The notes under the pieces: generated by a model
The model's input: only the letters and a program-made list of their open reading frames with translations
Databases searched by the model: none
Told to the model about the DNA's origin: nothing
Position numbers and translations under genes: made by a program
From: an uncultured Candidatus Saccharibacteria bacterium
GTDB lineage: Bacteria > Patescibacteriota > Minisyncoccia > SW-4-49-11
Direction: 5' to 3'
Assembly: GCA_964585065.1 (NCBI GenBank)
Contig: CAZPCB010000001.1
Coordinates: 226,866 to 290,865, forward strand
DNA length: 64,000 nucleotides
In this document: piece by piece, positions 12,601 to 36,506 of the stretch
Numbering within the stretch: position 1 is the first letter of the stretch
Layout: every line of letters starts with the position of its first letter

Positions 12601-12606
12601 ATTATA

Positions 12607-13080: not shown

Positions 13081-13254
13081 ATTTATATTTTATATATAAT
13101 AATTATACTGTATATTCATAATTATATCAACTTCAGATTAATTGATTCAAGGACATATATTGAAATATGAGTATTATAAAAAATTTGTTATATTATTATA
13201 TCTTGCACCTGAGTCGCTACAACCACTTCTATTAACAGATTTTATAAAAACATA

Positions 13255-15108: not shown

Positions 15109-15199
15109 ATTATTTTATTTGTCTTTATACACAATATATTCCAATTATTTTGATAGATAAAAGATTAAACAATCTCTTATCTATACAAAGTAATTTGAA

Positions 15200-15616: not shown

Positions 15617-15659
15617 TTGTTTACACCCCCCTTCTGTATATATTTCATATATATATATA

Positions 15660-16877: not shown

Positions 16878-16887
16878 ATTGTATATA

Positions 16888-17961
16888 TTATAATGTTGAT
16901 CTTTTTAGCATATTCCTCAAACTAATGGGGTCAGGGGAATATAATAAAGCCGTTTCGAATGATACAATTCCTGTTCGAATAAGATCAAATAATGATAAAT
17001 TCATAGATATCATACCTTCTTTACGATGAGTTTCAATAACAGTGTCCAATTGATAAATTCGATTTTCTCGAATAAGACTTTTTACCGCATTATTAGCTAA
17101 TAGGATTTCAAGAGCTGGAGTTAAATCTCCTTTAATAGTAGGTATAAGTCTCTGTGAGACAACAGCTTGTAGAGATGTAGATAATTGAGATCTTACCTGT
17201 CCTTGTTGATGAACAGGGAAGGTATCAATAATACGGTCAATGGACTGGGCAGCACTATTGGTATGAAGTGTTGAAAAAACAAGATGCCCTGTCTCAGCTG
17301 CAGTTACTGCAACTTGAACAGTATCCAAATCTCTCATTTCCCCTAAAAGAATAACATCTATATCCTGACGAAAAGATGATTGAAGTGCATTGGTAAAACT
17401 TTTAGTATCATAACCTACTTCTCTTTGAGTAATAATACTTTTATCTGAAGTATAAATAAATTCAATTGGATCTTCAATAGTAACAATTTTTACATCTCGG
17501 GTATGATTAATCTCATTAATCACTGATGCCAATGTAGTAGATTTACCCGAACCTGTTGGCCCGGTAACAAGCACAAATCCTTGCATTAATTGAGAGAATT
17601 GATGCATAACAGAGGGAAGCCCCAATTGCTCAAAGGTTAAAATCTCAGATGGTAAATATCTCATTACCAGATTAGGATTAGCTTGAGCAATAAAAGCATT
17701 TACACGGAATCGAGCATTTGATTCAGGGAATGTATAGGCAAAATCTTGTTCCTCACCAGCATATAAGGCTATTACTTGATCTTCTCGTAAAATAGATTTT
17801 AAGAATTCATCAAGAACCTCCTTAGTTAATACCGGCTGATCTTCAAGAGGAATTAATCTATTCTTAATTCTAAGTACTGGTTTACTCCCCGTAGTAAGAT
17901 GAATATCTGATCCTTTGGTATTTACTATTTGTGTTATTATTAGTTTTAAATCGATTGACAT
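16888..17961 (-). CDS. pilT: twitching-motility retraction ATPase PilT
   Basis: Walker A GPTGSGKSTT; 357 aa PilT/PilU-size secretion ATPase. Confidence 0.9.
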   Translation of the reverse strand: MSIDLKLIITQIVNTKGSDIHLTTGSKPVLRIKNRLIPLEDQPVLTKEVLDEFLKSILREDQVIALYAGEEQDFAYTFPESNARFRVNAFIAQANPNLVMRYLPSEILTFEQLGLPSVMHQFSQLMQGFVLVTGPTGSGKSTTLASVINEINHTRDVKIVTIEDPIEFIYTSDKSIITQREVGYDTKSFTNALQSSFRQDIDVILLGEMRDLDTVQVAVTAAETGHLVFSTLHTNSAAQSIDRIIDTFPVHQQGQVRSQLSTSLQAVVSQRLIPTIKGDLTPALEILLANNAVKSLIRENRIYQLDTVIETHRKEGMISMNLSLFDLIRTGIVSFETALLYSPDPISLRNMLKRSTL

Positions 17962-17971
17962 ATATCTGTGT

Positions 17972-18352
17972 TTAAGATGTTGGTAAATACTTTTGTACCG
18001 TACGCATTACCTCAGTAGGAGTATAATTTGATTTTACAATATAATCAACTGCCCCAAGCTCAAAAGCTTGATTAATATCAGCCTGAGAAGATAAATTACT
18101 CAAGACCACTACAGGAATATCTTTAAGATTAGCTTGCTTTTTTATCCATTGCAATATATCAAATCCACTCACATCAGGAAGTATAAGGTCAAGAAGAATT
18201 AAACTAATTTGTTTTCCATTTTTAGCAAGAATATCCTTTACCTCAGGTTGATTAGAGGCGGTAAATACATTAAAACCTAATTCATCAATTTTTGTAGCAT
18301 ACATTTGTGTAATGAAACTATCATCCTCAATCAATAATATGTGATTCTTCAT
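17972..18352 (-). CDS. stand-alone response-regulator receiver (CheY/PilH-like)
   Basis: LLIEDD...LILLDLILPDVSGFDI receiver motifs; 126 aa; lies between pilT and pilB. Confidence 0.75.
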   Translation of the reverse strand: MKNHILLIEDDSFITQMYATKIDELGFNVFTASNQPEVKDILAKNGKQISLILLDLILPDVSGFDILQWIKKQANLKDIPVVVLSNLSSQADINQAFELGAVDYIVKSNYTPTEVMRTVQKYLPTS

Positions 18353-18409
18353 ATATATGTTTATTTACTCTTATTCTGTATTAATAATATCATATCTTTA
18401 TGATTTTGC

Positions 18410-20158
18410 CTATATCTCTATAGTTGTTAATAACTCTGGGAGAGAAAGATATCCCTGCAATACCTTTAATATACCATCTTGTTTTAGGGTAACATAATCA
18501 TGGGCTCGAAGATATTCAGAAACCTCATTTTCATTGAATTTTTTTTCTACAATTGCTTGTAATTCCTCTGTCATTACCACTACCTCAAAAATTGCCATTC
18601 TTCCTTTGAATCCACCCGAGCATTTAGCACAGCCCACAGGCGTGTATAATGTATCATAATTACCATTATATACTTCTTTGATATATTCGGGAGTTAATGT
18701 AGTCAAAGACTCTTGTATATATTCTCTTTCTTTTCCATCTAAGGGAACTGCTTGTTTACATTCCTCACATAATTTTCTTACTAATCGCTGTGCAATAACT
18801 ATTTGTAGTGAGGCAGATAACAAAAATGGCTCTACCCCCATATCAATAAGCCGAGGTAATGCTCCTGGAGCATCATTAGTATGTAGAGTTGAGAACACAA
18901 TATGCCCCGTTAAAGCTGATTGTACCGCAAGCCCTGCGGTTTCACCATCTCGGATTTCTCCTACCATAATAACATCTGGATCCTGCCTCAAAATTGATCT
19001 AAGTCCAGAAGCAAAGGTATAATTTATTTCTGGCTTTACCTGAGACTGATTAACTCCAGATAAATAGTATTCTATTGGATCCTCTAATGTCACAATATTA
19101 ATATCATCCGTATTAATTTGTGATAACAGAGTATAAACTGTAGTTGATTTACCCGATCCCGTTGGTCCTGTTAATAGAAGCATACCAAATGGTTTTTTGA
19201 TTGCTTCTTGAATCAAGTTTACTCGAGGACCAATAAATCCTAATTGCTCTAATGATCTAATACCGTCCGAAGTATCTAAAATTCTCAATACTACCTTTTC
19301 TCCATATTGGGTAGGGAAAGTCGATACACGAAAATCTACTTTTTTATCTTTATCTAAAATAGAAAATCTTCCATCCTGGGGCTTTCTTTGCTCATCAATT
19401 TTGAGATTTGATAAAATTTTAATACGAGCAACAACGGGAGAATGGGCTTCTTTTGGTAAAATCAAACTAGTATGTAATACTCCATCCACACGAAATCTTA
19501 CCCGTACCGATTCATCAGTTCCTTCAATATGTATATCTGATGCTCCTCCTTCTACAGCATTTCTAATAATAACAGATACCATTTTGATAATAGGAGCACT
19601 TTCTAAATTTTCTGTTGTAATACCTGTGGTATCTGGGAGTATTTGTTCTGCTTCATTTTTTTGATGAAATTCCTCAAGATTTTCTGTAACTGCATTTTTT
19701 AAAGTTCCTGTTCTTTTGAGAGTTCGTTTAATATCTGATTCTATTGCGACAAATAACTCAAAAGATATTTTTTTTTCTTGAAAAATAAACTTAAGAGCTT
19801 GTATAGCAGTATAATTTTGTGGGTCAGCAATAGCGATAGAAATAGTATTATTTTCTTGTGCAAAAGGAATTAAGGTATATCTTTGCATAATATTAACCGG
19901 TAAAATATCATATAATTCTTTTGGTATACTAATATTCTCTAAATCTATAAATTCTAATCCCAAAATTTGAGCATTTACTGTTATTAATTCTTTTTCCGTA
20001 AAATTTTGCTCGAGAAAGGCTTTAATTTCTGATTCTGTTATAGTATCAAAAGAAGCTATTGACTTAAATTTATCAGGAAATTCATTTTTCAACAATTCAA
20101 ATGTTTTTTTTAAATCTAATTGCATATTATAACTTAAAATAACTACTAATAGTATCAA
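18410..20158 (-). CDS. pilB: type IV pilus assembly ATPase PilB (GspE family)
   Basis: N-terminal T2SE_N-like domain; Walker A LLTGPTGSGKSTT; C-terminal tetracysteine. Confidence 0.9.
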   Translation of the reverse strand: MILLVVILSYNMQLDLKKTFELLKNEFPDKFKSIASFDTITESEIKAFLEQNFTEKELITVNAQILGLEFIDLENISIPKELYDILPVNIMQRYTLIPFAQENNTISIAIADPQNYTAIQALKFIFQEKKISFELFVAIESDIKRTLKRTGTLKNAVTENLEEFHQKNEAEQILPDTTGITTENLESAPIIKMVSVIIRNAVEGGASDIHIEGTDESVRVRFRVDGVLHTSLILPKEAHSPVVARIKILSNLKIDEQRKPQDGRFSILDKDKKVDFRVSTFPTQYGEKVVLRILDTSDGIRSLEQLGFIGPRVNLIQEAIKKPFGMLLLTGPTGSGKSTTVYTLLSQINTDDINIVTLEDPIEYYLSGVNQSQVKPEINYTFASGLRSILRQDPDVIMVGEIRDGETAGLAVQSALTGHIVFSTLHTNDAPGALPRLIDMGVEPFLLSASLQIVIAQRLVRKLCEECKQAVPLDGKEREYIQESLTTLTPEYIKEVYNGNYDTLYTPVGCAKCSGGFKGRMAIFEVVVMTEELQAIVEKKFNENEVSEYLRAHDYVTLKQDGILKVLQGYLSLPELLTTIEI

Positions 20159-20309
20159 AGCTAGGTGCTACTATATCGGTATCCCCAACAGATATATGAT
20201 TTAATATAATAGCAAATATTTGATATCCAAAATAGCCTACAGCTATAATACTAACTGATACTATAATGAATTTGTGATACCTTTCAATAATTTGAGATAT
20301 ATTTTTCAT
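20127..20309 (-). CDS. small membrane protein (hypothetical)
   Basis: 60 aa with a single TM helix, between pilB and pilO-like; overlaps the pilB start. Confidence 0.2.
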   Translation of the reverse strand: MKNISQIIERYHKFIIVSVSIIAVGYFGYQIFAIILNHISVGDTDIVAPSFDTISSYFKL

Positions 20310-20311
20310 AT

Positions 20312-20842
20312 TTATTTATAATATGTTATTGCATTAATAGTTCCCTCTATATTACCTAATCCTTTAGCAAAAGATAAGCTAACGGCATTCACCCCTATAT
20401 ATCGCTTTGATTGTGTTAATTTCTGTAAAAAAGTATATATTTCTCTTTTACCTCCAGTTATTCTTAATAAAATATTCACTGGCCTTAATGTATTAATAGA
20501 AGTATTATTGGTATCTAAGTTATTAGTATCTTTTATTAGTGAACCCTGCTCATCTACAGAGATGGAAGCTATTTCAATATTAGATTCTCTTGCAAATTGT
20601 GTAAATTCTGTTGTAATCGCGGTCTTATCCAGTGAATCTGGTGTGAATTCATTTATTCTTTTTGCCAATTCTGAGGGCGACTTTTGATCAGCAAATGATT
20701 GGGTAATTTGTGTTTTTTTCTGTAATTCCTTTACTCCAGAGAATTTACTTGTCAAAAAATCAGTATAAAAATTAGTTATTGTCCAAATCAAAGTAATAAA
20801 TATAATACAGAATGAAATGGATAAAAGGGTTTTTTGATTCAT
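20312..20842 (-). CDS. PilO-like pilus assembly protein
   Basis: Single N-terminal TM plus periplasmic domain; position downstream of pilM and pilN. Confidence 0.4.
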   Translation of the reverse strand: MNQKTLLSISFCIIFITLIWTITNFYTDFLTSKFSGVKELQKKTQITQSFADQKSPSELAKRINEFTPDSLDKTAITTEFTQFARESNIEIASISVDEQGSLIKDTNNLDTNNTSINTLRPVNILLRITGGKREIYTFLQKLTQSKRYIGVNAVSLSFAKGLGNIEGTINAITYYK

Positions 20843-20847
20843 ATCAT

Positions 20848-21441
20848 CTACTTTAACTTAATCAATATATCAAGACTAACTCCACTACCCTCAGAATTCT
20901 TCCTAATATCTGAGGAAGAAGCATCTATAACACCTTTAACCTCCTTTATCTTAGATATTTGAGAATTAGCATCATCAAAAGAAAGCGCTTGTGCTGAAAG
21001 AATAATAGTCTTTTTTTGTGTACTATATACCCAAGAACTTGTTTTAAACCCAGTAGTATATGTTGCTTCAATTTCTTTCATAATTTCAACTGGATCATAT
21101 GTTTGAGAAATCAATGTATTCACATTATACACTGTTTTTTCTAAATCATCTTTTGGATAATATACACTATTTCTTTCATTTAAATCTGCTAAAATTTGAT
21201 TATATTCATTCGTAGGCTTTATAATATAAACCCAATAAACAGCACCCAATACTCCTATGTATATAATTAATGTCAATATAAATCCAATAATATACCCCCG
21301 ATAAGGATGCTCCTCTTTAATAGTCACATATCCCTCTGAGCCTTTTTGTCTATTAGGAATAAAGCTAATATTTTCCATATTATTCGACATAATCTTTAAG
21401 TGAAATACCAATTGACAATACCAAATCATGCCAAATTGCAT
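20848..21441 (-). CDS. PilN-like pilus assembly protein
   Basis: Bitopic protein directly downstream of pilM. Confidence 0.45.
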   Translation of the reverse strand: MQFGMIWYCQLVFHLKIMSNNMENISFIPNRQKGSEGYVTIKEEHPYRGYIIGFILTLIIYIGVLGAVYWVYIIKPTNEYNQILADLNERNSVYYPKDDLEKTVYNVNTLISQTYDPVEIMKEIEATYTTGFKTSSWVYSTQKKTIILSAQALSFDDANSQISKIKEVKGVIDASSSDIRKNSEGSGVSLDILIKLK

Positions 21442-22450
21442 GCAGAACTTCCTTATCCTTCACCCCTTTAATGCTCAGATTAGAATAGGGTTCTGCAACA
21501 GTAATAGTAATTTTTTGACTTACTCCTAATTGATTATTAATAACTAAATCAACAAATTCTCGAATACCGTCCATTTTAGCAAAGCCACCAAGCAATACAA
21601 TATCTTGTATTTTTTCTTCATTATTATCTTGGAATTGGTGAATAATACGCAATACTTCATTTTCAAAAAAGCTCTTAATCCCAGATTGTATTAAGGCTGA
21701 TATTTCTGACTTAGGACCAGATATTCCATTATCTTTTTTGAGTTTTTCTGCTTCTATACTGGATATATTATGAGAAGATGAAATTTTATCCGTAATATGA
21801 TTCCCTCCAAAATCAAATGATTGTATTAATTGCAATTGATCTTCTGTATTAACAATACTTACCGTACTGGTTCTTGCCCCAATATCTACAACACATACTT
21901 GACTATTGGGCAAATCAATAGAACGAATAATAGAGAAAGCATCTAATTCAAATCCCTTAATCGTAATACCTAGGGCTTTACTTACTTCAATATACGTATT
22001 TACCACACTATTAGGAATGGCAATTACTAATACATTTAATTTATCTTTTTCCTTATTAGGCCCTAAATTCATCCAATCTAATTGCACGCTGGTTAAAGGA
22101 ACAGGAATATATTGTTTTGCTTCAAGTGGTACAGCTGTAGACAACTCTTCAAATGACATAAGAGGAAATTGAACAACTGCTGAAAAAGCTAAATATGAAG
22201 GGATTGCAATATATGCCTCCTTTATTTCCATTTTAGCAGCATTAAGCATAGCTTGTATAATGGTGGTAATCTGAGATACAGAAATAATATGTTCCCCGTT
22301 TTTCTCTTGAATAATATTATCTAAATCATCATCCCAAATACTATAATTAATCACGGATATTTTCCCTCCTTGTTTTTGAACTTCCGAAATTTTAATAGTT
22401 TGTGTACCAATATCAATACCAAACGAATTTTTTACTCCTAATCCTAACAT
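21380..22450 (-). CDS. pilM: type IV pilus assembly protein PilM (actin-like ATPase fold)
   Basis: FGIDIGTQTIKISEV N-terminal actin-like motif; 356 aa. Confidence 0.7.
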   Translation of the reverse strand: MLGLGVKNSFGIDIGTQTIKISEVQKQGGKISVINYSIWDDDLDNIIQEKNGEHIISVSQITTIIQAMLNAAKMEIKEAYIAIPSYLAFSAVVQFPLMSFEELSTAVPLEAKQYIPVPLTSVQLDWMNLGPNKEKDKLNVLVIAIPNSVVNTYIEVSKALGITIKGFELDAFSIIRSIDLPNSQVCVVDIGARTSTVSIVNTEDQLQLIQSFDFGGNHITDKISSSHNISSIEAEKLKKDNGISGPKSEISALIQSGIKSFFENEVLRIIHQFQDNNEEKIQDIVLLGGFAKMDGIREFVDLVINNQLGVSQKITITVAEPYSNLSIKGVKDKEVLHAIWHDLVLSIGISLKDYVE

Positions 22451-24858: not shown

Positions 24859-24935
24859 GTACCTATAGCTCAGTTGGATAGAGCGCAGGTTTGCGGAACC
24901 TGAGGTCAGAGGTTCGAACCCTCTTAGGTACACCA
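24859..24935 (+). tRNA. tRNA-Arg (anticodon GCG), CCA encoded
   Basis: Hand-folded cloverleaf: acceptor GTACCTA/TAGGTAC, D-stem GCTC/GAGC, anticodon stem CAGGT/ACCTG with loop TTGCGGA, T-loop TTCGAAC. Confidence 0.75.
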
Positions 24936-27073: not shown

Positions 27074-28360
27074 TTATTCTTTCCAATTCCAATCAGAATT
27101 AATATATTCAGATACTTGTTTCGATTTTGGCTTATAATCTAAATTAAATCCAAATCCTGCAATACCTGGCTGTTTTTGAATTTGAAAACTATATTGTTGA
27201 GTTTTGGGAATAGTATAATCGATGACAATATCCTTAGTACTATTAAAAGGAATATCTATTTGAAATCCTGCTACTTTTTTATTATATTCGCTATTATAGT
27301 CAATTTTGTCTTTTTCAATACCAGTAATAGTATTAATAAAAGCATTTTGTGGTAATAATATTCTACTATATGACTTATAATCATTATTGAGAGGTGAGGC
27401 AGTCTGAGCAGTATTAGTATATCGTATGGTAATTGTGGAGCATAATTTGTCCCCACAAGTATTAACTGTTTTACTAATATCTCGCTTCATATAATAATCA
27501 GTTTTGAGAGAACCTAAATTAGCATCTACTAACATAAAATAATCCCCCTCCCCATTATTCTCAATAGCCCCATCCCAATTCAAAGTCTCAACTTTATCTT
27601 GTACTTTTTGATCTGAGCTCCATAATAATAGTTGCTTTTGATTAGCCTGCTCTATAAGCATATTCCCAATTTTATATAATGTTTGAGGAGAGGCTTTGCG
27701 AATTCTCTTCTCTACTTCAACTGCTAAATTTTTAATAGGCTCTTTACGGTCAGCACGACTTATCCCCTTATCAATAAATCCAAAATTAAGTTCATATTGT
27801 ACAGATAATAATACATTATCGGCATTTAATTCTCCATCTATTCCCTCTACATTCACTGGCCCAATAATTTTTAATATTTCAGGGAGAACAGCAGCATTTA
27901 CTGCAATAATACCATTTATATTTTGACTTCCCCCCTCCAATTTATATAAATCAATCATTTGTTTTGCTGTAGTTGGAAAATCTGGAGACCAATTTCCATC
28001 TCTCATTTGTAATGTATCGACTCCTAGCATAATTTTTATAGGCTCAGGAGCATTAATACCAGGCTTTCCATAATCAAAGGCATTCGTATTATAAATAGTA
28101 TACTTTTTCACTTTTCCTTTACTCAAAGTAACTTCTGCAAAATTACCTACAAATCCCCCTGTTGGTCTTAATTCTAAGGTATTCTGGAATAATACTAAAT
28201 AGGTGACATCTCCCTGTTTTTGTATAGCCTGTACAAGAGCAATTTCTTGTCTATATTGAGACCAAATAATTCCCCAGATAATAAGACCTATACTTATTAT
28301 TATCAATAGTATAATACCAATTATGGTAAAAATTCTCTTTTTGGGAGAGACTTTTTTCAT
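27074..28360 (-). CDS. membrane-anchored DUF4012-like envelope protein
   Basis: N-terminal TM then VLFQNTLELRPTGGFVGNFAEV signature. Confidence 0.5.
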   Translation of the reverse strand: MKKVSPKKRIFTIIGIILLIIISIGLIIWGIIWSQYRQEIALVQAIQKQGDVTYLVLFQNTLELRPTGGFVGNFAEVTLSKGKVKKYTIYNTNAFDYGKPGINAPEPIKIMLGVDTLQMRDGNWSPDFPTTAKQMIDLYKLEGGSQNINGIIAVNAAVLPEILKIIGPVNVEGIDGELNADNVLLSVQYELNFGFIDKGISRADRKEPIKNLAVEVEKRIRKASPQTLYKIGNMLIEQANQKQLLLWSSDQKVQDKVETLNWDGAIENNGEGDYFMLVDANLGSLKTDYYMKRDISKTVNTCGDKLCSTITIRYTNTAQTASPLNNDYKSYSRILLPQNAFINTITGIEKDKIDYNSEYNKKVAGFQIDIPFNSTKDIVIDYTIPKTQQYSFQIQKQPGIAGFGFNLDYKPKSKQVSEYINSDWNWKE

Positions 28361-28365
28361 ATCTA

Positions 28366-29547
28366 TTAATATTTCAAAGCTGCCGTAACCTGAATACCAG
28401 CACCCCTATATAGACGAGAGTCTCTCTGATATACATTTTCAAGAGCTTTTATAATATGATTCCAAGAATAATGATACCGTATTTCCTCTTGTAATATGTC
28501 CGCAAGTTCCAAAGCTCCTCGATAATCCCCCAATACATGCTCTAATTGATGTTTGAGAGAAGCAATATTATTCACCTTTGCAATATGCCCAAGATCCCCC
28601 ACAATTTCAAGATTTTCGCGAATATCGGATACAATAACAGGAATTCCATAACTTCCTGCCTCCAAAAGAGAAATAGATAATCCCTCTGAAGATGATGGAA
28701 GAACATATATTGCTGCATTAGCAAATAATTGTTTTAATGTTCTGCCTAATTGATGACCGGTAAATATAATATTTTTATCTCCATCTGCTAAATCATGAAG
28801 ATATTGTTCATATTCTCTGGTATAAGAAGGTCCTCCCACAATAACAAGCTTTTTCCCATATTTATGAGCCATTTGCTGATACGCCTGTATCAAAATATGA
28901 GCATTTTTATGTTTAACTAGTCTTGCAATAAATACAATATAGCCTTGTTTTTTGAGACCAAATTTGGCTAATTCTGAATCAGAACTAATATGATTAAACA
29001 CGGTACCATTTGGTATATAAGTAGCCTTAATATCAAATTCTCGAGATATAAAATAGCGTAAACTCTTAGAAACTGTTACTACTTCATCAGCAAAATGACA
29101 TCCTGTCCAAGCCCCTAATTTTAACATTGACTTAGCAAAAAGATTCCATTTTCCATGATACCAATCAGCACTATGAAATGTAAATACCACCTTGGTATAT
29201 CTATGTCCAAATAGATATTTGATAGCAAATCCGAGGCGAGCAAATGGAGTTAATAAGGCGGGGCCCACTGAATTGATATGAAGTACATCCAAATCTGGGA
29301 TAAAAAAACTATTCCAAATAGAAGTAAATGTATGAGTAATAGCATCCAAACTTTTGGTGGCAATAGAAGGGGTTTCAATTACCTGTACCCCTTTATAATT
29401 CCCTTCAGGAGCATAGGATTTACGTGTATAAACAATAATATCATGGTTCCGTCGAGCAAGTCTCACTGCAATATTATCAACATAGTTCTCCACACCACCC
29501 CCAGCTGAGGCAGGAATACCTTTTTGACCTATAAAAGCAATTTTCAT
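28366..29547 (-). CDS. glycosyltransferase family 4 (GT-B)
   Basis: MKIAFIGQKGIPASAGGGVENYV N-terminus; C-terminal EGLSISLLEAGSYGIPVIVS motif. Confidence 0.7.
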   Translation of the reverse strand: MKIAFIGQKGIPASAGGGVENYVDNIAVRLARRNHDIIVYTRKSYAPEGNYKGVQVIETPSIATKSLDAITHTFTSIWNSFFIPDLDVLHINSVGPALLTPFARLGFAIKYLFGHRYTKVVFTFHSADWYHGKWNLFAKSMLKLGAWTGCHFADEVVTVSKSLRYFISREFDIKATYIPNGTVFNHISSDSELAKFGLKKQGYIVFIARLVKHKNAHILIQAYQQMAHKYGKKLVIVGGPSYTREYEQYLHDLADGDKNIIFTGHQLGRTLKQLFANAAIYVLPSSSEGLSISLLEAGSYGIPVIVSDIRENLEIVGDLGHIAKVNNIASLKHQLEHVLGDYRGALELADILQEEIRYHYSWNHIIKALENVYQRDSRLYRGAGIQVTAALKY

Positions 29548-29578
29548 GAAAATACTAATAGTAATCTAATTAATATAA

Positions 29579-29607
29579 ATTATAGCATATTTTGACTCAA
29601 ATGTCAA
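29579..29607 (-). promoter_or_regulatory. sigma70-type extended -10 promoter for the GT4 gene
   Basis: Minus strand TTGACA, 17 nt, atatgcTATAAT. Confidence 0.5.
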
Positions 29608-29674
29608 AAGTTTTCAACAACTGAAATAAAGAAAAGCCCACCCTCGAATTGAGAGTGAACCTAAAGTTGAAGCA

Positions 29675-29866
29675 TTACCAAATGAGTCGAATACCTGTCA
29701 TAAATATATCAGCTCCAATCAAACCTGAGAGGAGAGATAAAATACTAAGCAGTACCTGAGACTGCTGAGGAATATTCTCTGACATAATATCTTCTTCGGC
29801 AATACTATGCTGAATGATTACAGCTACCAAAATAGATACAATCAGTAAGACTGGGTTGCGTCTCAT
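29675..29866 (-). CDS. small membrane protein (hypothetical; start chosen at the internal Met)
   Basis: 63 aa hydrophobic ORF followed by a hairpin plus T-run around 29625-29660; the upstream part of the 111 aa ORF overlaps the island terminator region. Confidence 0.2.
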   Translation of the reverse strand: MRRNPVLLIVSILVAVIIQHSIAEEDIMSENIPQQSQVLLSILSLLSGLIGADIFMTGIRLIW

Positions 29867-30023
29867 GAATCTAAAAGAGCAGATATAAAATCTATTATAG
29901 CCTATATTCTTACAAAATGAAAATCCCCAACTGCAAGCAGCTGGAGATATAGGGGTAAAACCAGAAATGGTCAAGGCGACTGCTCCCCGTGAGGGGTTAG
30001 TTGCTATCATTTTTGGTTTTACT

Positions 30024-31163
30024 TCAGAAGCCGAAGCGGAGCTTTACTGTTCCCCCAAACCCTGAGCGGGTATTGGAGTCGAGTCCCAGCACATAGGCTG
30101 GCACCACCTGAATAGCCGTATTGCGGCTGAGATTCAGGGTGATGGGGGCTCCGAGTTCAACTCGACTAGTGGAGTTATCACGGCCGAGGCCATAAAGAAC
30201 TCCCTTTGCCTGAAGCTGGACCTGCAGCTTCGAATTGGCATCCCCCACCAGATTAGGTGTGGTGACCTCGGGATAAAAATATCCTCCGTCAGTATTCACA
30301 CCCCCCTGGACATACAGATTCCAGGGATTCTTGGAGTTGCCGGGGCGAATACCGCCTTCGCCGAAGGCGTCATAGCCTCCATTGGCGAAATCGTATTCGC
30401 CACCTGCACCAATCCAAGGATTGGCGGAAGACTTGGGGTCCAGGCGATGCCGAATCCGGGCTCGGATACCGACATCAGTCTGAGGCTTATCCGACTTCCA
30501 TTCACCGGAATAAAGATCATCGGGGCTTTTCCAAGTCCCATTAGCATTATTCTGCTGGAAACGGACAAAGGGACCAGCATTCCACTCGGTAGTGGAAGAC
30601 CAGCCTCTCAGAGCCCCATAGATATCCAGCTTACTGGAATCATAGGAGCAAGTACCTCCCGGACCTGCTGGGCAAGTTCCCGAGCTTTGATAGCCGGTAA
30701 CTTGCATCAGGAAAGGTTTCCCCTTGGGAGCCAGCGTGACTCCAGCCTTGGAATTGATCTGGCTGGGAGTGCTACTGTACTCTGCCTCCCCCCTGATATT
30801 GGTGTTATTACCACCGAACAGGGAGGATTCTCCACCGCCCTTTTGAAAAGGGGTAACAACAGGTCCTGCAACCACAGGATTGACAGATTGTTGTGTCACA
30901 ACCTGAGTTACCGGCAAAACCGGTGGTGGTCCAGGTGGAGCCTGTGACATTTGCGGAACACTTCCAGCATTACGAGCCTCGGCAGCTTCACGCATGGCAC
31001 GAAGCTCAGTTGCTTGCTCTCGTGTGGAGAGTCTCCGAGGCATTTCTGCCTGGATACTGTTAACCGATTGAGGGACTGCAGCCTTCACTTCCGCCTTGAC
31101 ACCCATAGGGGCAAGTAGTGGAAGAGCGATTGCAAACATCCCCAAGATGTTACGATTTTTCAT
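30024..31163 (-). CDS. secreted beta-barrel outer-membrane-protein-like protein (GC-rich, codon usage foreign to host)
   Basis: Start MKNRNILGMFAIALPLLAPMGVKA signal peptide with AGGAG RBS 8 nt upstream; Pro-rich linker; C-terminal alternating hydrophobic strands ending ...GGTVKLRFGF with terminal Phe. Confidence 0.55.
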   Translation of the reverse strand: MKNRNILGMFAIALPLLAPMGVKAEVKAAVPQSVNSIQAEMPRRLSTREQATELRAMREAAEARNAGSVPQMSQAPPGPPPVLPVTQVVTQQSVNPVVAGPVVTPFQKGGGESSLFGGNNTNIRGEAEYSSTPSQINSKAGVTLAPKGKPFLMQVTGYQSSGTCPAGPGGTCSYDSSKLDIYGALRGWSSTTEWNAGPFVRFQQNNANGTWKSPDDLYSGEWKSDKPQTDVGIRARIRHRLDPKSSANPWIGAGGEYDFANGGYDAFGEGGIRPGNSKNPWNLYVQGGVNTDGGYFYPEVTTPNLVGDANSKLQVQLQAKGVLYGLGRDNSTSRVELGAPITLNLSRNTAIQVVPAYVLGLDSNTRSGFGGTVKLRFGF

Positions 31164-31191
31164 CGTAAAACTCCTGGTAAAGAACTCTCGC

Positions 31192-31220
31192 ATACTAGCA
31201 TAAAAACACGATTTTGTCAA
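31192..31220 (-). promoter_or_regulatory. near-consensus sigma70 promoter for the OMP-like gene
   Basis: Minus strand TTGACA, 17 nt (aaatcgtgtttttatgc), TAGTAT; the ORF-track N-terminal extension runs through it. Confidence 0.6.
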
Positions 31221-31252
31221 TAGCTAACAACATCTGTTATAGTGTTTGGGGA

Positions 31253-31285
31253 GAAATAAAAAAGCCCCCACAAATTGTGAGGGCT
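31253..31285 (-). terminator. rho-independent terminator
   Basis: Minus strand gccctcaca-attt-gtgggggc then ttttttattt. Confidence 0.5.
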
Positions 31286-31301
31286 GATATGAGGAATCTG
31301 A

Positions 31302-32300
31302 TCAGCGATGAAAACGGACCAGGCTCCAGCCTTGTTGAACCCAGGGCTGACCACCTTGATTAATCACCTTGACCCGGGTGTCACGTCCATCAGGAAGAGA
31401 TCCCCATTGAATCCAGGCAATCTTGCCATCGGGAAGCTTGGCACCAAAGGTGCCAGCATCGGTAGCGGAGGAGTTCAGCTGAACTCCAGCTTGGAATGCT
31501 ACTCCTGGCTGAATTGCGATGAATTCGCGTCCTACCGACATACCGCCCTCCCGAGGGAGGAAGAAATATTGCGCCCCGGGAATGGGGGTGGTGGAGAGAG
31601 TGATACGATCATTGCTGACCGTGATCACTGCCGGGAACCTGAGCCCAGAATCTGGCAGACGCCAGATAGGCTCCCTCACCGCCGAGGCGGGAGTCGAGGA
31701 TAAAATCCTCGAGGTAGCCAAGTCCCCACCCGTGAAGATGGGGCCAAAGAATACTCCCCTGCTGGTGGGGACATACCCTTTTGAGGTATGCCCCCACCCA
31801 GCAACTTCCCAGCCTGGTGAACTTACAAGAGTAAGACCACCAGTACCAGCCCCCTTAGGCCCATTGTCGAGCCATTGCCAGCCACCATCAGATTTGACAC
31901 TGATAAGGCTGAAGGCAAGGGGTCCATTGGACCGGAAGTTGATACTCTCCCCATAAGCTCCACAAGGGAGCGCAGAGAGATTTTTCACCTCCTGGTACAA
32001 AGGCACCAGGCAGAAACGCCGAGGCGTACCTGCTGTGGGCCCAGCACCAGATCTTCCAGCAGACCCAAGGGCCTTTTGGTTAATCAGTCTATTAGCCTGA
32101 GGAGCCCAGTCCGAGGGACGGGACCCAGGCTTGGCTGTCACCAACCCTGCCGAGGCTTTGACCTCAGAAGGACTGATAATCACCCTAACCACCCGATTGG
32201 AATTGGGGGTGCTGATTTGGAGCCTCAAAGGCAATGTCTCCGCCTTTCCAGCCGAAGCCAGTAAAACAGAGCCAAGGAAGATGGGAATGAACTTTTTCAT
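31302..32300 (-). CDS. secreted Gly-rich protein of unknown function (GC-rich island gene 2)
   Basis: Start MKKFIPIFLGSVLLASAGKA signal peptide; GC-rich codons; own promoter and terminator. Confidence 0.5.
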   Translation of the reverse strand: MKKFIPIFLGSVLLASAGKAETLPLRLQISTPNSNRVVRVIISPSEVKASAGLVTAKPGSRPSDWAPQANRLINQKALGSAGRSGAGPTAGTPRRFCLVPLYQEVKNLSALPCGAYGESINFRSNGPLAFSLISVKSDGGWQWLDNGPKGAGTGGLTLVSSPGWEVAGWGHTSKGYVPTSRGVFFGPIFTGGDLATSRILSSTPASAVREPIWRLPDSGLRFPAVITVSNDRITLSTTPIPGAQYFFLPREGGMSVGREFIAIQPGVAFQAGVQLNSSATDAGTFGAKLPDGKIAWIQWGSLPDGRDTRVKVINQGGQPWVQQGWSLVRFHR

Positions 32301-32326
32301 TAGGATAAACCTATGAAGACGCATAA

Positions 32327-32355
32327 ATAATAGCATATTTAAAGAAAAAAGTCAA
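32327..32355 (-). promoter_or_regulatory. near-consensus sigma70 promoter for island gene 2
   Basis: Minus strand TTGACT, 17 nt, atatgcTATTAT. Confidence 0.55.
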
Positions 32356-32375
32356 GTATTGACAACATTTTAATA

Positions 32376-32406
32376 TATAAAAAAGGCCCCTGCATTGCAG
32401 AGGCTT
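32376..32406 (-). terminator. rho-independent terminator
   Basis: Minus strand gcctctgc-aa-tgcaggggc then ttttt. Confidence 0.45.
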
Positions 32407-32425
32407 ATTGGACTAAGCTGACACC

Positions 32426-32740
32426 TCAGCGAGGAGATGTCGTCGCTCGAGGAATCTCGAGCAGGCCGTTGCCGGCTGAATCCCTGAGGGATTTCGCCCC
32501 CGGGAACAGAGTGTTCGGTACCCAATTACCGGGTGACACCTCCACCCCATCGGTCACCCAGCACCCATTGCGGGCACACAGGGACTGAGCTTCGGAGACC
32601 GAGGTCCAGGCCCTCGTGGTGGACCCGATGGGTCCGACGGCGACCCTGCCGCTGAGGGACTGAGCCGTGGCGGGAGCCACGGTCAGAAGTGTGGTGCCTG
32701 CCAGCAGAGCGCCGGCGATGAACTTGGTAAGAGTTTTCAT
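32426..32740 (-). CDS. small secreted Cys-containing protein (GC-rich island gene 3)
   Basis: MKTLTKFIAGALLAGTTLLTVAPATAQS signal peptide; about 62% GC; CARNGC motif. Confidence 0.5.
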   Translation of the reverse strand: MKTLTKFIAGALLAGTTLLTVAPATAQSLSGRVAVGPIGSTTRAWTSVSEAQSLCARNGCWVTDGVEVSPGNWVPNTLFPGAKSLRDSAGNGLLEIPRATTSPR

Positions 32741-32765
32741 GGTTTATCCACGAAACGACTTAGCG

Positions 32766-32794
32766 ACTATAGCATATTATATCTTATTTGTCAA
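32766..32794 (-). promoter_or_regulatory. near-consensus sigma70 promoter for island gene 3
   Basis: Minus strand TTGACA, 17 nt, atatgcTATAGT. Confidence 0.55.
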
Positions 32795-32856
32795 GATATA
32801 AAAACAAAAAAATACCGGCAGCTATTGCTACCGGCTTGAGATTGGAAAATAATGTA

Positions 32857-33252
32857 TCAGCAATTCCCGATTGCAAAGCCACCATCTCGCGTCCATTTTT
32901 TGAAGAGGCAACCTCCATTATTATTCCATCCTGAATTAGGCTGTCTCCAATGTTGATTATTATTCCATCCTGGGTTTTGCCACTGATTATTCCAGTTTCT
33001 ATTATTATTCCAATTCCCATTATTTCTAAAAATATGAGTCCTGGTGGATGCATTGAATCCTTGATATCCATCACAAGGTAATCCTTGTGATTCCACAATA
33101 GGACAAATAATAGTGCGTGGACGAATATCGGAGCGAATTATCACCCCATTATATTCAATACTTTCAAAAGATTCACCCCACCATTGAGCTGTTGCTGCCA
33201 TTGGGAATAGAACTGAAATTGCTGTTACAAAAGGGAGAAAGAGCTTTTTCAT
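32857..33252 (-). CDS. secreted low-complexity Asn/Trp-repeat protein
   Basis: Signal peptide MKKLFLPFVTAISVLFPMAATAQ; C-terminal NWNNNRNWNNQWQNPGWNNNQHW repeats; host-like codon usage. Confidence 0.5.
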   Translation of the reverse strand: MKKLFLPFVTAISVLFPMAATAQWWGESFESIEYNGVIIRSDIRPRTIICPIVESQGLPCDGYQGFNASTRTHIFRNNGNWNNNRNWNNQWQNPGWNNNQHWRQPNSGWNNNGGCLFKKWTRDGGFAIGNC

Positions 33253-33314: not shown

Positions 33315-34382
33315 TCATTTACTCTGAGATAAAGCTTTAGCTAATATTTTAGCATAACTATGTTGTTGAGTGTATTTTATAATATTTTTTGCAAACTTAT
33401 TCATATCATTTTCATCTATATGAATTAATGTTGTATATAAACTTTCTTCATTATCTTGTATTACTAATCCTAAATTATATTCTTGTATATCCTTACTTAT
33501 ACTAGGATATGGAGTAGTAATAATTGGGAGACCTAATGAAAGATAATCTTTAATTTTCCCTGGATCAGCACAAGATATTTCTAATGTATTCTCATATAAA
33601 GCTATTCCAAAACCAATATGATGCTTCACTACTAATTCTTGTATTTGCTGTTCATCTTGAAATCCATATAAAGTAATATTAGAGCTTGCAGTATTATGAA
33701 TTATTTTCTCAATTTCTTGATACAAATTACCCTTACCTATAAGATGTAGATGATAGTCTGGAGATAATTGTGCAAAAACATTTACCAATAATCGTAAATT
33801 ATGACCTTCTTTAAAATTACCCATAAAGAGTATTTGTCTTGAATCGGGTTTATAGGGAGCAATTTTTTGAGTATGAACCCCTAATGGTACAGTAAATACC
33901 AAAGATTTATTAATATGTTTTTTTTCATGTTCTATAATAATTTGTGAACTCAAAGTCCATACCATATTTGCCCGCTTATATACTGAGGCCTCTATTTTGT
34001 TAATAATATAGCGTGATGAAAGTCTATTAGAATAAAAATAATAATCATAGGCATAATATATTATAGGGATATCCTTAAAATAATCTCGAAGTGAAAGAGC
34101 AATATATCCCTCAAACCAATCTATAGCCAAAATATAATCATAATCTGCATCAAATTGAGATGTCATATATTTCCGTATACTATGATAATGTCCCCAATAA
34201 TATGCTATCTTGGATGTATATGATGAAGTCGATATATTCCCTATATGAGTAGTATAATAATTTTGAGGATATTGGAGGGAAGGGAAAAGGAGATAATGTA
34301 CAGTATGTCCCAAATCTTGAAGACCTTTAATAATATCCTCTGATTTAGCTATATGTTGTCGACCTAATACTAAAATTTTCAT
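33315..34382 (-). CDS. glycosyltransferase (GT-B fold)
   Basis: 355 aa, GT1-like C-terminal region; sits in the polysaccharide cluster. Confidence 0.5.
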   Translation of the reverse strand: MKILVLGRQHIAKSEDIIKGLQDLGHTVHYLLFPSLQYPQNYYTTHIGNISTSSYTSKIAYYWGHYHSIRKYMTSQFDADYDYILAIDWFEGYIALSLRDYFKDIPIIYYAYDYYFYSNRLSSRYIINKIEASVYKRANMVWTLSSQIIIEHEKKHINKSLVFTVPLGVHTQKIAPYKPDSRQILFMGNFKEGHNLRLLVNVFAQLSPDYHLHLIGKGNLYQEIEKIIHNTASSNITLYGFQDEQQIQELVVKHHIGFGIALYENTLEISCADPGKIKDYLSLGLPIITTPYPSISKDIQEYNLGLVIQDNEESLYTTLIHIDENDMNKFAKNIIKYTQQHSYAKILAKALSQSK

Positions 34383-35773
34383 ATACTCGTATCTGATTTA
34401 TTATCTAAACTCTGATAATGTAATACTGCCCCCAATAAAAGGAATAATATCCACATTAATACTGTTCCACGAAGTAAATTATCCCAAAAACTCACTATAT
34501 AAATCACCGTCATCAAGGATGCTAAATATAAAATATAGATATTTTTACCCTGTATATAGCGATAATATAATACTCCTAGAATATTAAGTATTAATATTCC
34601 ATATATCATAAGGCCAATCAATCCTTGTTCTAGGAATATTTTGATATAATCATTATGTACTTCAAGAGAACCTCTAAATGTACCTCGTGTTTGCTCAACC
34701 ATAATTTGAGAACTTCCTGTACCAAAACCTATTATAGGGGACTCCCAGGCTTTTTCATACATATCTGTCCACATAGTTAATCTCCATATCACCGAATCAC
34801 TGGGGTCGGCATTAAATAAGCCTGATACTCTATTAATCACAGGTAAAGTAGTTAGTGGCGGTAAATCTAAAACAGTAGGGGGAGATAAAATCTGATATAT
34901 AGATAATACTAAAGCAATAAATCCTAATCCTATTGATGTAATAATTAAACTTTTACGTGGATATTTAATTAATCCTATTAAGGCAATTAACATGATAAGC
35001 CCAAACCAGGCACCTCGTGTAAAAGTAACCAAAAGAATAATAATATATAATAAGCCAATACTTCCTAATAATCTCTTTTCATCTATTGAAATAGTAGTAT
35101 TCTTATTCAGCCATATACTCCCAATTAATGCAAGGATAATAATAGAATAATACGCAAGTACATTAGGATGTCCAAATGTACCTGCAATACGATTTTCAAA
35201 CCCAGGATTAGTATATAATCCTGTGCCAGAAAAATATTCAATATATGCAACGAATAGTGGAATAATACTCCCATATATAATAACTCTCATTATATTCATT
35301 AATTTATTTTGATGTGAAACATATATCCACCCCACAAAATAGAGCATAATAAAACTCAATACTCTCACTGTTTCCTGTAATCCGACAAACAATGAAATCC
35401 CTGTAAAACTAAAAATAATATATACAAGTACAATCAGTCCTAAACTCCACATTAAAGGGATATGTGAATTATATACTACTATTCGGTGTTTATATATATA
35501 TATGAATGACAATACTATTATCATTATAGCAATAGTAGATCCCAAATTAATAATAGGAAAATCAGGTAATGTAAAAGGGCTAATAATATCTATAGCTGGC
35601 CGTAAAAAAATCAAAGTAAATAAACCTACTTCTAAAGAAATAGATAATATGAATACAAATACCCAACTAAGAATAACTGCCGCAAATATGATACCAGGAG
35701 CATTAAGTAAAATACATATAAGTAAACTTATAGCCCCAAGTCCAATAATTATATTAGAACTTATCTGAGTCAT
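34379..35773 (-). CDS. O-antigen ligase / polymerase-like polytopic membrane protein (Wzy_C family)
   Basis: More than 10 TM helices with a large periplasmic loop ...GTFGHPNVLAYY... Confidence 0.55.
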   Translation of the reverse strand: MTQISSNIIIGLGAISLLICILLNAPGIIFAAVILSWVFVFILSISLEVGLFTLIFLRPAIDIISPFTLPDFPIINLGSTIAIMIIVLSFIYIYKHRIVVYNSHIPLMWSLGLIVLVYIIFSFTGISLFVGLQETVRVLSFIMLYFVGWIYVSHQNKLMNIMRVIIYGSIIPLFVAYIEYFSGTGLYTNPGFENRIAGTFGHPNVLAYYSIIILALIGSIWLNKNTTISIDEKRLLGSIGLLYIIILLVTFTRGAWFGLIMLIALIGLIKYPRKSLIITSIGLGFIALVLSIYQILSPPTVLDLPPLTTLPVINRVSGLFNADPSDSVIWRLTMWTDMYEKAWESPIIGFGTGSSQIMVEQTRGTFRGSLEVHNDYIKIFLEQGLIGLMIYGILILNILGVLYYRYIQGKNIYILYLASLMTVIYIVSFWDNLLRGTVLMWILFLLLGAVLHYQSLDNKSDTSI

Positions 35774-36506
35774 ACTCTGTATCTGGACTTATAGATGGGG
35801 GTGGAGTTAAATCAATAATAGGGTTTTCAGCTATTTCATATTCATCAGGAAGTTGTGGGGACACAAAATTATCAACACCAAAATCATATGATATACTTTG
35901 ATCTCGCCTTGCAATAACATATCCAATCGCAATAGAAAATCCTAATAGAGCTGATCCCAAGAGATTAACCAAAATATCTGGCCGCCCAACTCCATCATAC
36001 AAAGATGATTGATTTACAACTTGAATAGTACCTGTTTCTCCAAATAATACCTTTGCCCGTTCAATTAATTTATCCACTACGACTTTATTCATAGTAAGGG
36101 CGAGTTCAGAGGAGACATCATAGGTTGATACTGAGACAAAACCAGTTCCCTTGGCCTCAACAATAATATTACGAGCAAATGCGGTTCTTCTATCCTTCAG
36201 ATTTTCAGGAAATGCATTCTTGATATCAACATTATCAGCAGTAACACTTGCAAAAAATGTATCGGTATATACCAAATTAACTAATAAATCTACTTTTGAA
36301 TTAATTGATCTTTGTGCCGTATAGGAATCAATTTCTGGATTTACTTTCTGAATAACAACAAGTTGAGACTCTCCCCTATATTGTTTTGGTATAATAAGAG
36401 TAATACCCACTCCGACTAATACAAAAATAAGTGTTATAATAATAACCGTATTAAATTTTCTTTGTATTTTGGATATAATATCACCTAAAGTAAGATTGGA
36501 CTCCAT
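35754..36506 (-). CDS. polysaccharide chain-length determinant (Wzz/CpsC-like)
   Basis: N- and C-terminal TM helices flanking a periplasmic domain; 250 aa like Gram-positive CpsC/YwqC. Confidence 0.5.
   Translation of the reverse strand: MESNLTLGDIISKIQRKFNTVIIITLIFVLVGVGITLIIPKQYRGESQLVVIQKVNPEIDSYTAQRSINSKVDLLVNLVYTDTFFASVTADNVDIKNAFPENLKDRRTAFARNIIVEAKGTGFVSVSTYDVSSELALTMNKVVVDKLIERAKVLFGETGTIQVVNQSSLYDGVGRPDILVNLLGSALLGFSIAIGYVIARRDQSISYDFGVDNFVSPQLPDEYEIAENPIIDLTPPPSISPDTEYDSDKF

Follow-up and report, generated by a model that had tools for sequence, protein, structure and literature searches.

Several described outer-membrane (OM) proteins combine a β-barrel with a further module. In FapF, a helical segment at the N terminus is joined through an extended linker to the barrel at the C terminus, a layout that the protein described here resembles, and in OmpA a Pro-rich spacer forms a hinge to a C-terminal wall-proximal module. 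OmpM is made up of an N-terminal SLH domain (PF00395) and a β-barrel porin; both OmpM and SLH domains are absent from the candidate phyla radiation (CPR), whose members are considered monoderms that no longer have porins (bioRxiv 10.1101/2021.05.31.446380). Here we analyse a 64,000-nucleotide stretch (the window) of contig CAZPCB010000001.1 (assembly GCA_964585065.1, positions 226,866 to 290,865), deposited under the name of an uncultured Candidatus Saccharibacteria bacterium, and within it the gene (the barrel gene) for a predicted OM protein (OMP)-type β-barrel (the barrel protein). An initial annotation had called such a gene unexpected in a genome that looks monoderm or CPR-like. We agree: the host falls in Candidatus Paceibacteria, and the gene is surprising there because this is a CPR lineage and the CPR is held to be monoderm and stripped of porins.

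The CPR, or Patescibacteria, may account for about a quarter of bacterial diversity, and to our knowledge almost none of its members outside Saccharibacteria have been cultured. How these bacteria acquire metabolites and how they construct their envelopes are central open questions. Our literature searches turned up no description of an OMP-type barrel from Patescibacteria, and public sources label the barrel protein ‘hypothetical’. We show that its sequence family is an orphan of familiar structural type, present in a lineage where it was not expected and bearing an evolutionary signature that is out of the ordinary.

Architecture and predicted fold

The barrel gene is a minus-strand open reading frame (ORF; 30024-31163) that begins at the ATG at 31163. 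A longer frame from TTG 31220 was ruled out, as this triplet is the TTG of the promoter −35 hexamer; because it lies inside the hexamer and an AGGAG Shine–Dalgarno sequence stands upstream of ATG 31163, the latter is the start and the product has 379 amino acids (aa). With its own promoter and terminator (Table 1), the gene is an independent transcription unit, and the promoter is, by its sequence, of native type and probably strong. Long antisense ORFs run across the gene (for example, 30447-30947 on the plus strand), an expected by-product of the high GC content of this stretch. The barrel gene itself is real and not a chance ORF of GC-rich DNA, as its homologs, its ratio of nonsynonymous to synonymous substitution rates (dN/dS) and its own promoter and terminator establish.

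The initial annotation had described a signal peptide, a helical segment rich in Ala, Arg and Glu, a Pro-rich linker and a region rich in Gly, Asn, Ser and Thr, and all of these are present in the sequence and in the AlphaFold2 model. The putative signal peptide has a basic N-region, a hydrophobic core and a predicted VKA|E cleavage site, and the same three elements, with cleavage sites of the small-x-small type, recur in every member of the family alignment. The N-terminal 113 residues are disordered in the model except for its sole helix, at residues 47-63, which is predicted with low confidence; the helix motif REQxxELRAMRxAAEARN recurs in many family members, although not in all. Across the family the region that precedes the barrel spans 81-164 aa, and its tether is hypervariable in both length and sequence. 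The C-terminal domain of about 265 aa is rich in Gly (14.3%), Ser (8.9%), Thr (6.9%) and Asn (6.9%).

When the 29-sequence family alignment was given to AlphaFold2, residues 121-379 were modelled as 14 long antiparallel strands (counted by DSSP) with block pLDDT values mostly of 80-93; the pTM was 0.61 and the five models had pLDDT values of 52.7-67.8. A Foldseek search of the PDB returned 83 matches at E ≤ 0.001, and all 50 of the best listed were OM barrels with a probability of 1.00. They included FadL (E = 1e-6, TM-score 0.43-0.51), FapF (E = 3e-6, root mean square deviation (rmsd) 5.4 Å, target TM-score 0.50) and OmpG (target-normalized TM-score 0.57-0.60), as well as BamA/TamA barrels and the autotransporters EstA, EspP, BrkA, NalP and Hbp. 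No soluble β-sandwich or β-propeller fold was among the top 50 PDB matches; the β-sandwich outcome considered beside the barrel in the initial annotation did not occur. A search of a viral structure library yielded porin or autotransporter barrels only and no specific viral structural relative.

The alternation of hydrophobic and polar residues in the C-terminal strands, together with a terminal Phe, had first drawn attention to this protein, and both stood up to quantification. The family-averaged hydropathy contrast between strand faces is 3.05, compared with 1.28 ± 0.25 for shuffled sequences, and none of 5,000 shuffles reached the observed value. Charged residues on the strands number 25 on the polar faces and 5 on the apolar faces; the polar faces carry 14 Lys/Arg and 11 Asp/Glu, including the Arg run IRARIRHR, from which a preference for anions would be predicted if the barrel is a pore. 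The contrast is weak in strands b3-b5 and b13. The C terminus, GGTVKLRFGF, is hydrophobic at positions −1, −3, −5 and −7, and 25 of the 29 aligned sequences end in Phe, the other 4 in Leu; P0036, a distant member, likewise ends in GFRF. A Cys164-Cys172 pair is kept in 26/29 members.

At the level of sequence the family stands alone. Pfam (E ≤ 1), NCBIfam and PHROGs contain nothing that matches the window protein, and the family profile has no match among PDB sequences. A permissive Pfam scan of the 29 members matched Autotransporter (PF03797) in 3 (best E = 7.5e-4) and OMP_b-brl_2 in 1; the Autotransporter match was not reproduced in follow-up scans of 17 members, and the window protein itself has no PF03797 match at E ≤ 10. 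SLH domains were likewise missing, both from the window protein (E ≤ 1) and from the full set of 29 members (E ≤ 10), and no OmpA_C domain was found.

On this basis the product is very probably an OMP-type membrane β-barrel, a class assignment that we make from strand pattern and fold matches; as modelled, the barrel is probably monomeric and porin-like. The same evidence bears on a different reading, in which the protein would be a secreted or wall- or S-layer-associated β-protein whose Gly-rich amphipathic hairpins AlphaFold2 renders as a barrel. Such a protein would be in keeping with the shallow alignment and the modest pTM and pLDDT values, with TM-scores to real barrels of only 0.4-0.6, with the weak face contrast in strands b3-b5 and b13, with the lack of any OMP Pfam family at threshold and with an organism that is expected to have no OM. 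We nevertheless regard it as improbable, given a strand-face contrast beyond anything seen in the shuffles, the near exclusion of charge from one face, top structural matches in two libraries that are transmembrane barrels (probability 1.00), a conserved terminal Phe strand typical of OMPs, and the absence of soluble β-folds from the best matches.

A clade-restricted family under purifying selection

A contig 97% identical to the window, JBIIRM010000002.1, comes from a Candidatus Paceibacteria metagenome-assembled genome (MAG) from Lake Mendota. Relatives of the barrel protein are encoded in 4 of 185,579 GTDB species genomes, all of them Paceibacteria, Parcubacteria or ‘Saccharibacteria’-labelled CPR MAGs. 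Among the MAGs with the gene are JBIIRM01, JBEAQD01, CAZYEN01 and JBIKVS01. A word-indexed search of 5.8 billion clusters defined a family of 32 members, and a profile search run exhaustively over 1.84 billion representatives added few more, all from the same clade. No homolog outside the clade, and hence no donor, was detectable among about 15 billion proteins. One candidate member, the 1,952-aa repeat protein P0035, looks spurious; P0036 is a distant but genuine member from the same locus. P0036, the most distant of all (L015, 505-1776), is an acidic protein whose N-terminal region is rich in Glu, Val and Thr; its gene lies directly upstream of the genes for a GT4-family glycosyltransferase (GT) and a DUF4012 protein.

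Over the full length of the barrel gene, five pairwise comparisons gave dN/dS values of 0.18-0.29, and the near-identical pair of the window and L001 (WIN-L001) gave 0.50. The β-domain, at 0.08-0.16, is under strong purifying selection as estimated from these alignments, and the N-terminal part, at 0.36-0.78, evolves 3-10 times faster.

A fixed slot in a surface-glycan locus

We fetched 16 genomic contexts of family members, 15 of which were long enough to judge (the sixteenth contig has only 1.8 kb). In 15/15 informative contexts the barrel gene occupies the same slot, in the order Wzz, Wzy, glycosyltransferase, secreted cassettes, barrel, GT4, DUF4012 and RecG. The GC-rich island described below takes up this slot in the window and in L001, L003, L007-L014, L016-L018 and L020, and the conserved gene order extends to the most distant member, P0036, and to a relative matched only at E = 2.5e-25. 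The features of the window are collected in Table 1.

Table 1. Features of the barrel gene, its product and the surrounding locus, in window coordinates
Feature	Position	Strand	Basis and associated signals
Barrel gene: signal peptide, helix, Pro-rich tether, predicted 14-stranded OMP-type β-barrel	30024..31163	−	ORF, homologs, AlphaFold2, Foldseek, dN/dS, GC3
Putative Sec-type signal peptide, residues 1-24, MKNRNILGMFAIALPLLAPMGVKA|EV	31092..31163	−	Read from sequence
Short charged amphipathic helix, residues 47-63, TREQATELRAMREAAEA	30975..31025	−	AlphaFold2, low confidence
Pro-rich low-complexity tether, residues 64-113	30825..30974	−	Disordered in AlphaFold2 model
Predicted β-barrel domain, residues 114-379, 14 antiparallel strands, Cys164-Cys172 loop, C-terminal VKLRFGF	30027..30824	−	AlphaFold2, strand pattern
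Barrel-gene promoter, TTGACA-17-TAGTAT, TG-extended −10	31192..31220	−	Sequence
Hairpin terminator 3′ of barrel gene, 11-pair stem then T-run	29923..29948	−	Sequence
GC-rich island, cassette array of secreted-protein genes	29950..32760	.	GC scan, GC3
DUF4012 protein	27074-28360	−	Pfam of syntenic genes
GT4-family glycosyltransferase	28366-29547	−	Pfam of syntenic genes; block 27074..29547
63-aa ORF, two hydrophobic membrane helices, between barrel gene and GT4	29675..29866	−	Promoter 29923->29894, terminator 29662->29634
o333, secreted orphan, 333 aa	31302..32303	−	Promoter 32355->32327, terminator 31285->31263
o104, small secreted orphan, 104 aa, 2 Cys	32426..32740	−	Promoter 32794->32766, terminator 32404->32386
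o131, secreted, 131 aa, 4 Cys, Asn/Trp/Gln-rich	32857..33252	−	Terminator 32835->32814
Glycosyltransferase	33315-34382	−	Upstream neighbour, Pfam of syntenic genes
Wzy/O-antigen-ligase-like protein	34379-35773	−	Upstream neighbour, Pfam of syntenic genes
Wzz-like protein	35754-36506	−	Upstream neighbour, Pfam of syntenic genes

The cassette proteins that accompany the barrel are all secreted endemic orphans. The most conserved island gene is o333, with 21 homologs at 74-96% identity and a mean column identity of 80%; across the more distant loci it remains 77-82% identical, which exceeds most flanking proteins, such as PilM, DUF4012 and Wzy. It has no Pfam match, and we discarded its AlphaFold2 model (pLDDT 41). 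In some relatives o333 is replaced by an unrelated secreted protein of the o275 type, to which no relationship was detectable (E = 0.11). Three members of the o275 family, P0088, P0063 and P0077, lie on contigs of 1.17 Mb, 425 kb and 253 kb, which may be near-complete CPR genomes. Homologs of o104, the most GC-rich gene of the window, occur in 7/10 other loci with a GC content at third codon positions (GC3) of 0.62-0.74. A homolog of o131 is present in 10/10 other loci compared, with a near-native GC3 of 0.26-0.32, and by its composition o131 may be a fibre or amyloid-like surface component; its tail, NWNNNRNWNNQWQNPGWNNNQHW, is encoded partly by two copies of an exact 17-nucleotide repeat (D9), ATTATTATTCCATCCTG. 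The 63-aa ORF on the other side of the barrel gene is a called gene in L001 and L002, and none is called in L003; similar-sized ORFs of 67-68 aa stand at its position in L011 and L020.

The surroundings also fit the monoderm, CPR-like character that the initial annotation had read from the window. Domain scans confirmed two tandem RNase J paralogs (51130-54673, minus strand), the DUF4012 gene next door and a type IV pilus locus (12100-22450, minus strand) with PilM, PilN/O-like, PilB, PilT, PilC, a prepilin peptidase and several pilins, in which no secretin gene was found. Nor did other OM components come to light: domains of BamA, Lpt, Tol-Pal and secretins were absent from the 40 larger window ORFs that were scanned and from 12 more read by eye, and neither the 64-kb window nor the 10-kb flanks of related loci yielded an Omp85/BamA. 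Elsewhere in the window, a 634-aa DUF11/DUF7927 repeat protein, probably located at the cell surface, is encoded next to RecO (48477-50381, minus strand).

These surroundings bear on the chief alternative to the reading proposed below, in which the barrel sits in the producer’s own envelope. It would then be a porin and tether similar to OmpM or OmpA, inserted from inside into an unrecognized outer lipid or glycolipid layer that the adjacent Wzz, Wzy, GT and DUF4012 genes possibly build. The protein is laid out in the manner of wall-to-OM tethers, with its barrel behind a signal peptide, a helix and a Pro-rich spacer, the conserved C-terminal Phe β-signal implies assembly from the periplasmic side, the gene is fixed in the organism’s own surface-glycan locus in every informative context, and its promoter is native and probably strong. 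We still consider such a layer unlikely. In the 64 kb we detected neither BamA nor Lpt, Tol-Pal, Lol or secretin genes, the type IV pilus locus is likewise secretin-less, and the protein has no SLH or OmpA_C wall-binding domain; CPR bacteria are reported to be monoderm, with porins and SLH lost (bioRxiv 10.1101/2021.05.31.446380). Furthermore, the family occurs in only 4 GTDB species, an envelope innovation across a clade would need many more dedicated genes, and the loops that would be exposed at the surface are unusually conserved.

A related proposal is that the barrel exports the polysaccharide made by the Wzz, Wzy and glycosyltransferase proteins, or a secreted fibre such as o131, in the manner of AlgE, PgaA, BcsC or FapF. 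The gene always adjoins GT4-DUF4012 and lies near Wzy and Wzz, FapF is among the best structural matches, low-complexity secreted proteins similar to o131 accompany it in all ten other loci, and basic residues somewhat outnumber acidic ones on the polar strand faces, which include the Arg run. Glycan porins, by comparison, have 16-18 strands and FapF has 12, as against the 14 predicted here. An export channel would also need an outer layer of the producer’s own and thus meets every objection raised above; no fap, alg, pga or bcs partner genes and no Pfam match were found, and the barrel gene is transcribed independently and has a foreign codon usage, unlike the glycan genes. We therefore hold an export role to be quite improbable.

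A GC-rich island of stationary composition

The barrel gene lies in a sharply bounded island of 53-66% GC, which the initial annotation had not remarked on, in a window that otherwise has 29-36% GC (33% overall). The GC3 is 0.50 for the barrel gene (z = 9.4), 0.54 for o333 (z = 10.7) and 0.72 for o104 (z = 16.3), compared with 0.206 ± 0.032 for 59 background genes. The excess is not an amino-acid effect: among Leu codons, CTG makes up 0.35 in the island and 0.04 in the background, and TTA 0.03 and 0.48. Every island gene lies on the minus strand and encodes a protein with a signal peptide. Each is transcribed separately, with a TG-extended σ70-type promoter and a hairpin terminator recognizable in AT-rich spacers (GC 0.33-0.38). 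A family of 45-nucleotide direct repeats (D1, at 29575-29619, 32323-32367 and 32762-32806) is a shared promoter module, TTGAC-N17-TG-n-TAtaaT, which precedes the native GT4 gene (promoter 29607->29579) as well as the island genes o333 and o104.

The same island is found in the 10 other loci compared, 9 of which carry barrel subfamily 1; L009 carries the divergent subfamily 2. In the nine subfamily-1 loci, flanking proteins are 42-100% identical to those of the window, and GC3 is 0.45-0.74 in the island and 0.15-0.28 in the flanks; L009 shows a similar contrast, with a barrel GC3 of 0.57. The orthologs have nonetheless diverged widely, with differences at four-fold sites (p) of 0.41-0.62 except in the two closest pairs and synonymous divergence (dS) of 0.35-1.3, yet GC3 has held steady and shows no amelioration towards host composition. 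Polarized third-position changes from weak to strong (W>S) and from strong to weak (S>W) bases are about evenly balanced, at 32/35, 26/27 and 17/16, with at most 1.9-fold more S>W; decay towards a GC3 of 0.2 would predict about 4:1, although the parsimony used is crude and the outgroup saturated. High GC is thus a stationary property of the island genes in AT-rich lineages.

This history qualifies the suggestion in the initial annotation that the gene was laterally acquired. Its codon usage is strongly foreign, as that idea would have it, and yet the acquisition is neither recent nor private, for the same locus is present in all informative relatives, the promoters are of native type, the gene is under purifying selection and no donor is found. 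The island has the deviant composition of a recent genomic island; mobility genes, att repeats, patchy presence and a donor were not found. Pfam, PHROGs and repeat scans detected no integrase, att-like repeats or phage families, and the promoter module is the only notable repeat family. The nearest tRNA lies 5 kb from the island.

Composition alone, with GC3 9-16 standard deviations above that of the 59 background genes and a wholly different codon usage, could have pointed to an assembly chimera, a contaminant or a very recent, possibly non-functional insertion that has yet to ameliorate. The occurrence of the same slot in 15/15 contexts rules out both a chimeric assembly and a recent insertion private to this genome, and we assign this family of explanations a negligible probability. 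The locus recurs in independent JGI, ENA, Logan and NCBI assemblies from lineages whose RecG proteins are only 75-80% identical, the spacers carry the organism’s own promoter module and terminators, the island orthologs combine a dS of 0.35-1.3 with a GC3 of 0.45-0.74, W>S and S>W changes are roughly equal, dN/dS is well below 1, and neither integrase, att repeats and phage families nor a donor came to light.

Three candidate causes could keep the island GC-rich: a recombination hot spot at which gene conversion favours GC, selection acting on synonymous positions, or renewed import from a reservoir not yet sampled. The concept of GC-biased gene conversion has been described for bacteria (PMC4450053). 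High expression was rejected as the cause, because the pilin gene with the highest GC3 outside the island area reaches only 0.27. A ‘compositional fossil’ of a GC-richer ancestor is also unlikely: synonymous sites have turned over, and the barrel GC3 in L015, a genome of about 43% GC, is 0.36 (flanks 0.39-0.41) and so lies below the values in AT-rich lineages.

As a separate observation, ARAGORN identified a tRNA-Arg gene with anticodon GCG at 24859-24935 (plus strand), confirmed as a tRNA by Rfam. Bacteria normally decode CGU, CGC and CGA with an ACG anticodon that is edited to ICG, and the GCG anticodon may be informative on TadA and decoding in this lineage.

Recombination within and between island genes

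The N-terminal modules of the barrel protein have been shuffled between its two subfamilies. In the alignment, P0032 has an N terminus similar to those of P0004 and P0019, and P0030 and P0031 have N termini similar to those of P0005 and P0006; this shuffling of signal peptide and tether modules indicates intragenic recombination. The cassettes are mosaic as well, with a partner of the o333 or o275 type, a small protein that is o104, o120 or o122, and a barrel of subfamily 1 or 2; L008 holds only o122 and the barrel. We ruled out that the partner type co-varies with the barrel subfamily, because L007 combines o275 with subfamily 1.

Island genes also part ways with their flanks. L011 has flanks close to those of the window (RecG 94% identical, dS 0.6) and a barrel that is only 69% identical (dS 1.05), whereas L012 has distant flanks (dS 0.85-1.6) and a barrel that is 87% identical (dS 0.35). 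Gene trees of the island are thus decoupled from those of the flanks, and alleles have therefore been exchanged between lineages. Taken together, our data show that the barrel gene is the one constant member of a recombining, GC-rich array of secreted-protein cassettes in a surface-glycan locus.

Where the barrel might act

We tentatively propose, as a possible account, that the protein is a tethered OMP-type pore or anchor and that the lipid layer in which it works lies outside the producer’s own membrane and may belong to a partner cell. Its parts differ in standing. That the site of action is a lipid layer lying beyond the cytoplasmic membrane seems fairly likely; that this layer belongs to a partner cell is a conceivable step about which we are rather doubtful. 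Pore function, the role of the tether and residence in a membrane are all features that we infer, and the choice of membrane most of all.

The barrel protein would be exported by Sec, and its N-terminal helix and Pro-rich, length-variable tether would keep it joined to the wall zone of the producer. The barrel would then form a pore, or an anchor, in lipid beyond the Paceibacteria cytoplasmic membrane; the favoured candidate for this layer would be the OM of a partner or host cell, entered from outside at a contact site. When OmpA folds into vesicles in vitro, its termini stay on the near side and its loops cross. With entry from outside, the termini and tether of the barrel protein would likewise face the producer, the conserved long hairpins would face the periplasm of the partner, and the tether would bridge the two cells.

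We favour a partner membrane because no genes for an OM of the producer’s own are visible, the neighbours are secreted orphans and conservation is inverted. The inversion is relative to ordinary surface porins: the hairpins that would be extracellular in such a porin, including Cys164-Cys172, are conserved, and the tether that would be periplasmic is hypervariable. Secreted orphan neighbours are what would be expected of interaction genes.

A number of points weigh against the proposal, beginning with the provisional nature of the barrel class itself, the moderate TM-scores and the shallow alignment behind the model, all described above. Fast-evolving Pro-rich linkers are common in any case, which makes the argument from inverted conservation a weak one. 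The conserved C-terminal Phe β-signal suggests periplasmic assembly of the Omp85 type and would suit an outer layer of the producer’s own better, and the location among the organism’s own glycan-synthesis genes would be just as well explained by a role in its own envelope. Lipopolysaccharide (LPS) outer leaflets resist spontaneous insertion. Many freshwater CPR bacteria, finally, have been argued to be free-living.

A bolder form of the proposed partner-membrane role, which we think unlikely as it stands, joins the protein to the behaviour of its gene. In this version a CPR bacterium would plant a tethered porin in the OM of a diderm partner, as a feeding pore or a grappling anchor, and the gene would be drawn from a recombining pool of ‘interaction cassettes’ whose composition is held off equilibrium by GC-biased gene conversion or selection.

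Implications

A conserved, selected and probably highly expressed gene for what is very probably an OMP-type barrel, found in one Paceibacteria clade, contradicts the simple picture of a monoderm, porin-less CPR. The barrel protein is a clonable candidate, either for a symbiont-made pore or anchor in a partner membrane or for a sign of an unrecognized CPR outer layer, and either outcome would bear on models of the diderm-to-monoderm transition. The locus is also a natural case of a GC3 that stays about 0.3 above that of the genome through around one synonymous substitution per site, amid swapping between lineages. As such it lends itself to telling GC-biased gene conversion apart from selection at the synonymous sites of bacteria, and it warns that compositional ‘foreignness’ is not always a mark of recent transfer.

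Comparison with known systems

OmpG and FadL, the best structural matches, share with the barrel protein 14 strands, a signal peptide, a dyad hydrophobic pattern and a terminal Phe. FadL differs in having an N-terminal hatch domain, where the barrel protein has a disordered tether of about 90 aa; neither protein is recognizably related to it in sequence, no Toluene_X match was found, and the host here is a CPR bacterium and not a diderm. FapF is the second-best Foldseek match, and a low-complexity, Asn/Gln/Trp-rich secreted protein is encoded near the barrel gene. Unlike the barrel protein, FapF has 12 strands, a plug helix, an N-terminal coiled coil and a fapA-F operon; here we find 14 predicted strands, a helix of about 17 residues, no fap genes and no sequence similarity.

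OmpM and OmpA resemble the barrel protein in setting an outer-layer barrel apart from a wall-proximal module (N-terminal in OmpM, C-terminal in OmpA) by an extended or Pro-rich spacer. They differ in that the barrel protein has no SLH or OmpA_C domain, its wall-proximal part being just a short charged helix that is not family-wide. Autotransporters (PF03797) provide the sole hint at the sequence level (3/29 members) and their barrels are among the structural matches, but they have 12 strands, a large N-terminal passenger and a helix through the pore, whereas the barrel protein has its tether of about 90 aa and no passenger.

As a genetic element, the island resembles genomic islands and O-antigen and capsule loci in its deviant composition, its setting in a glycan locus, its mosaic cassettes and the exchange of alleles through conserved flanks. 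In contrast to classical islands, it lacks mobility genes, its promoters are native and the homologs of its genes are confined to the clade. Classical islands are, moreover, usually AT-richer than their hosts and drift towards host composition, whereas this island is about 20 percentage points GC-richer and has remained so through a dS of about 1.

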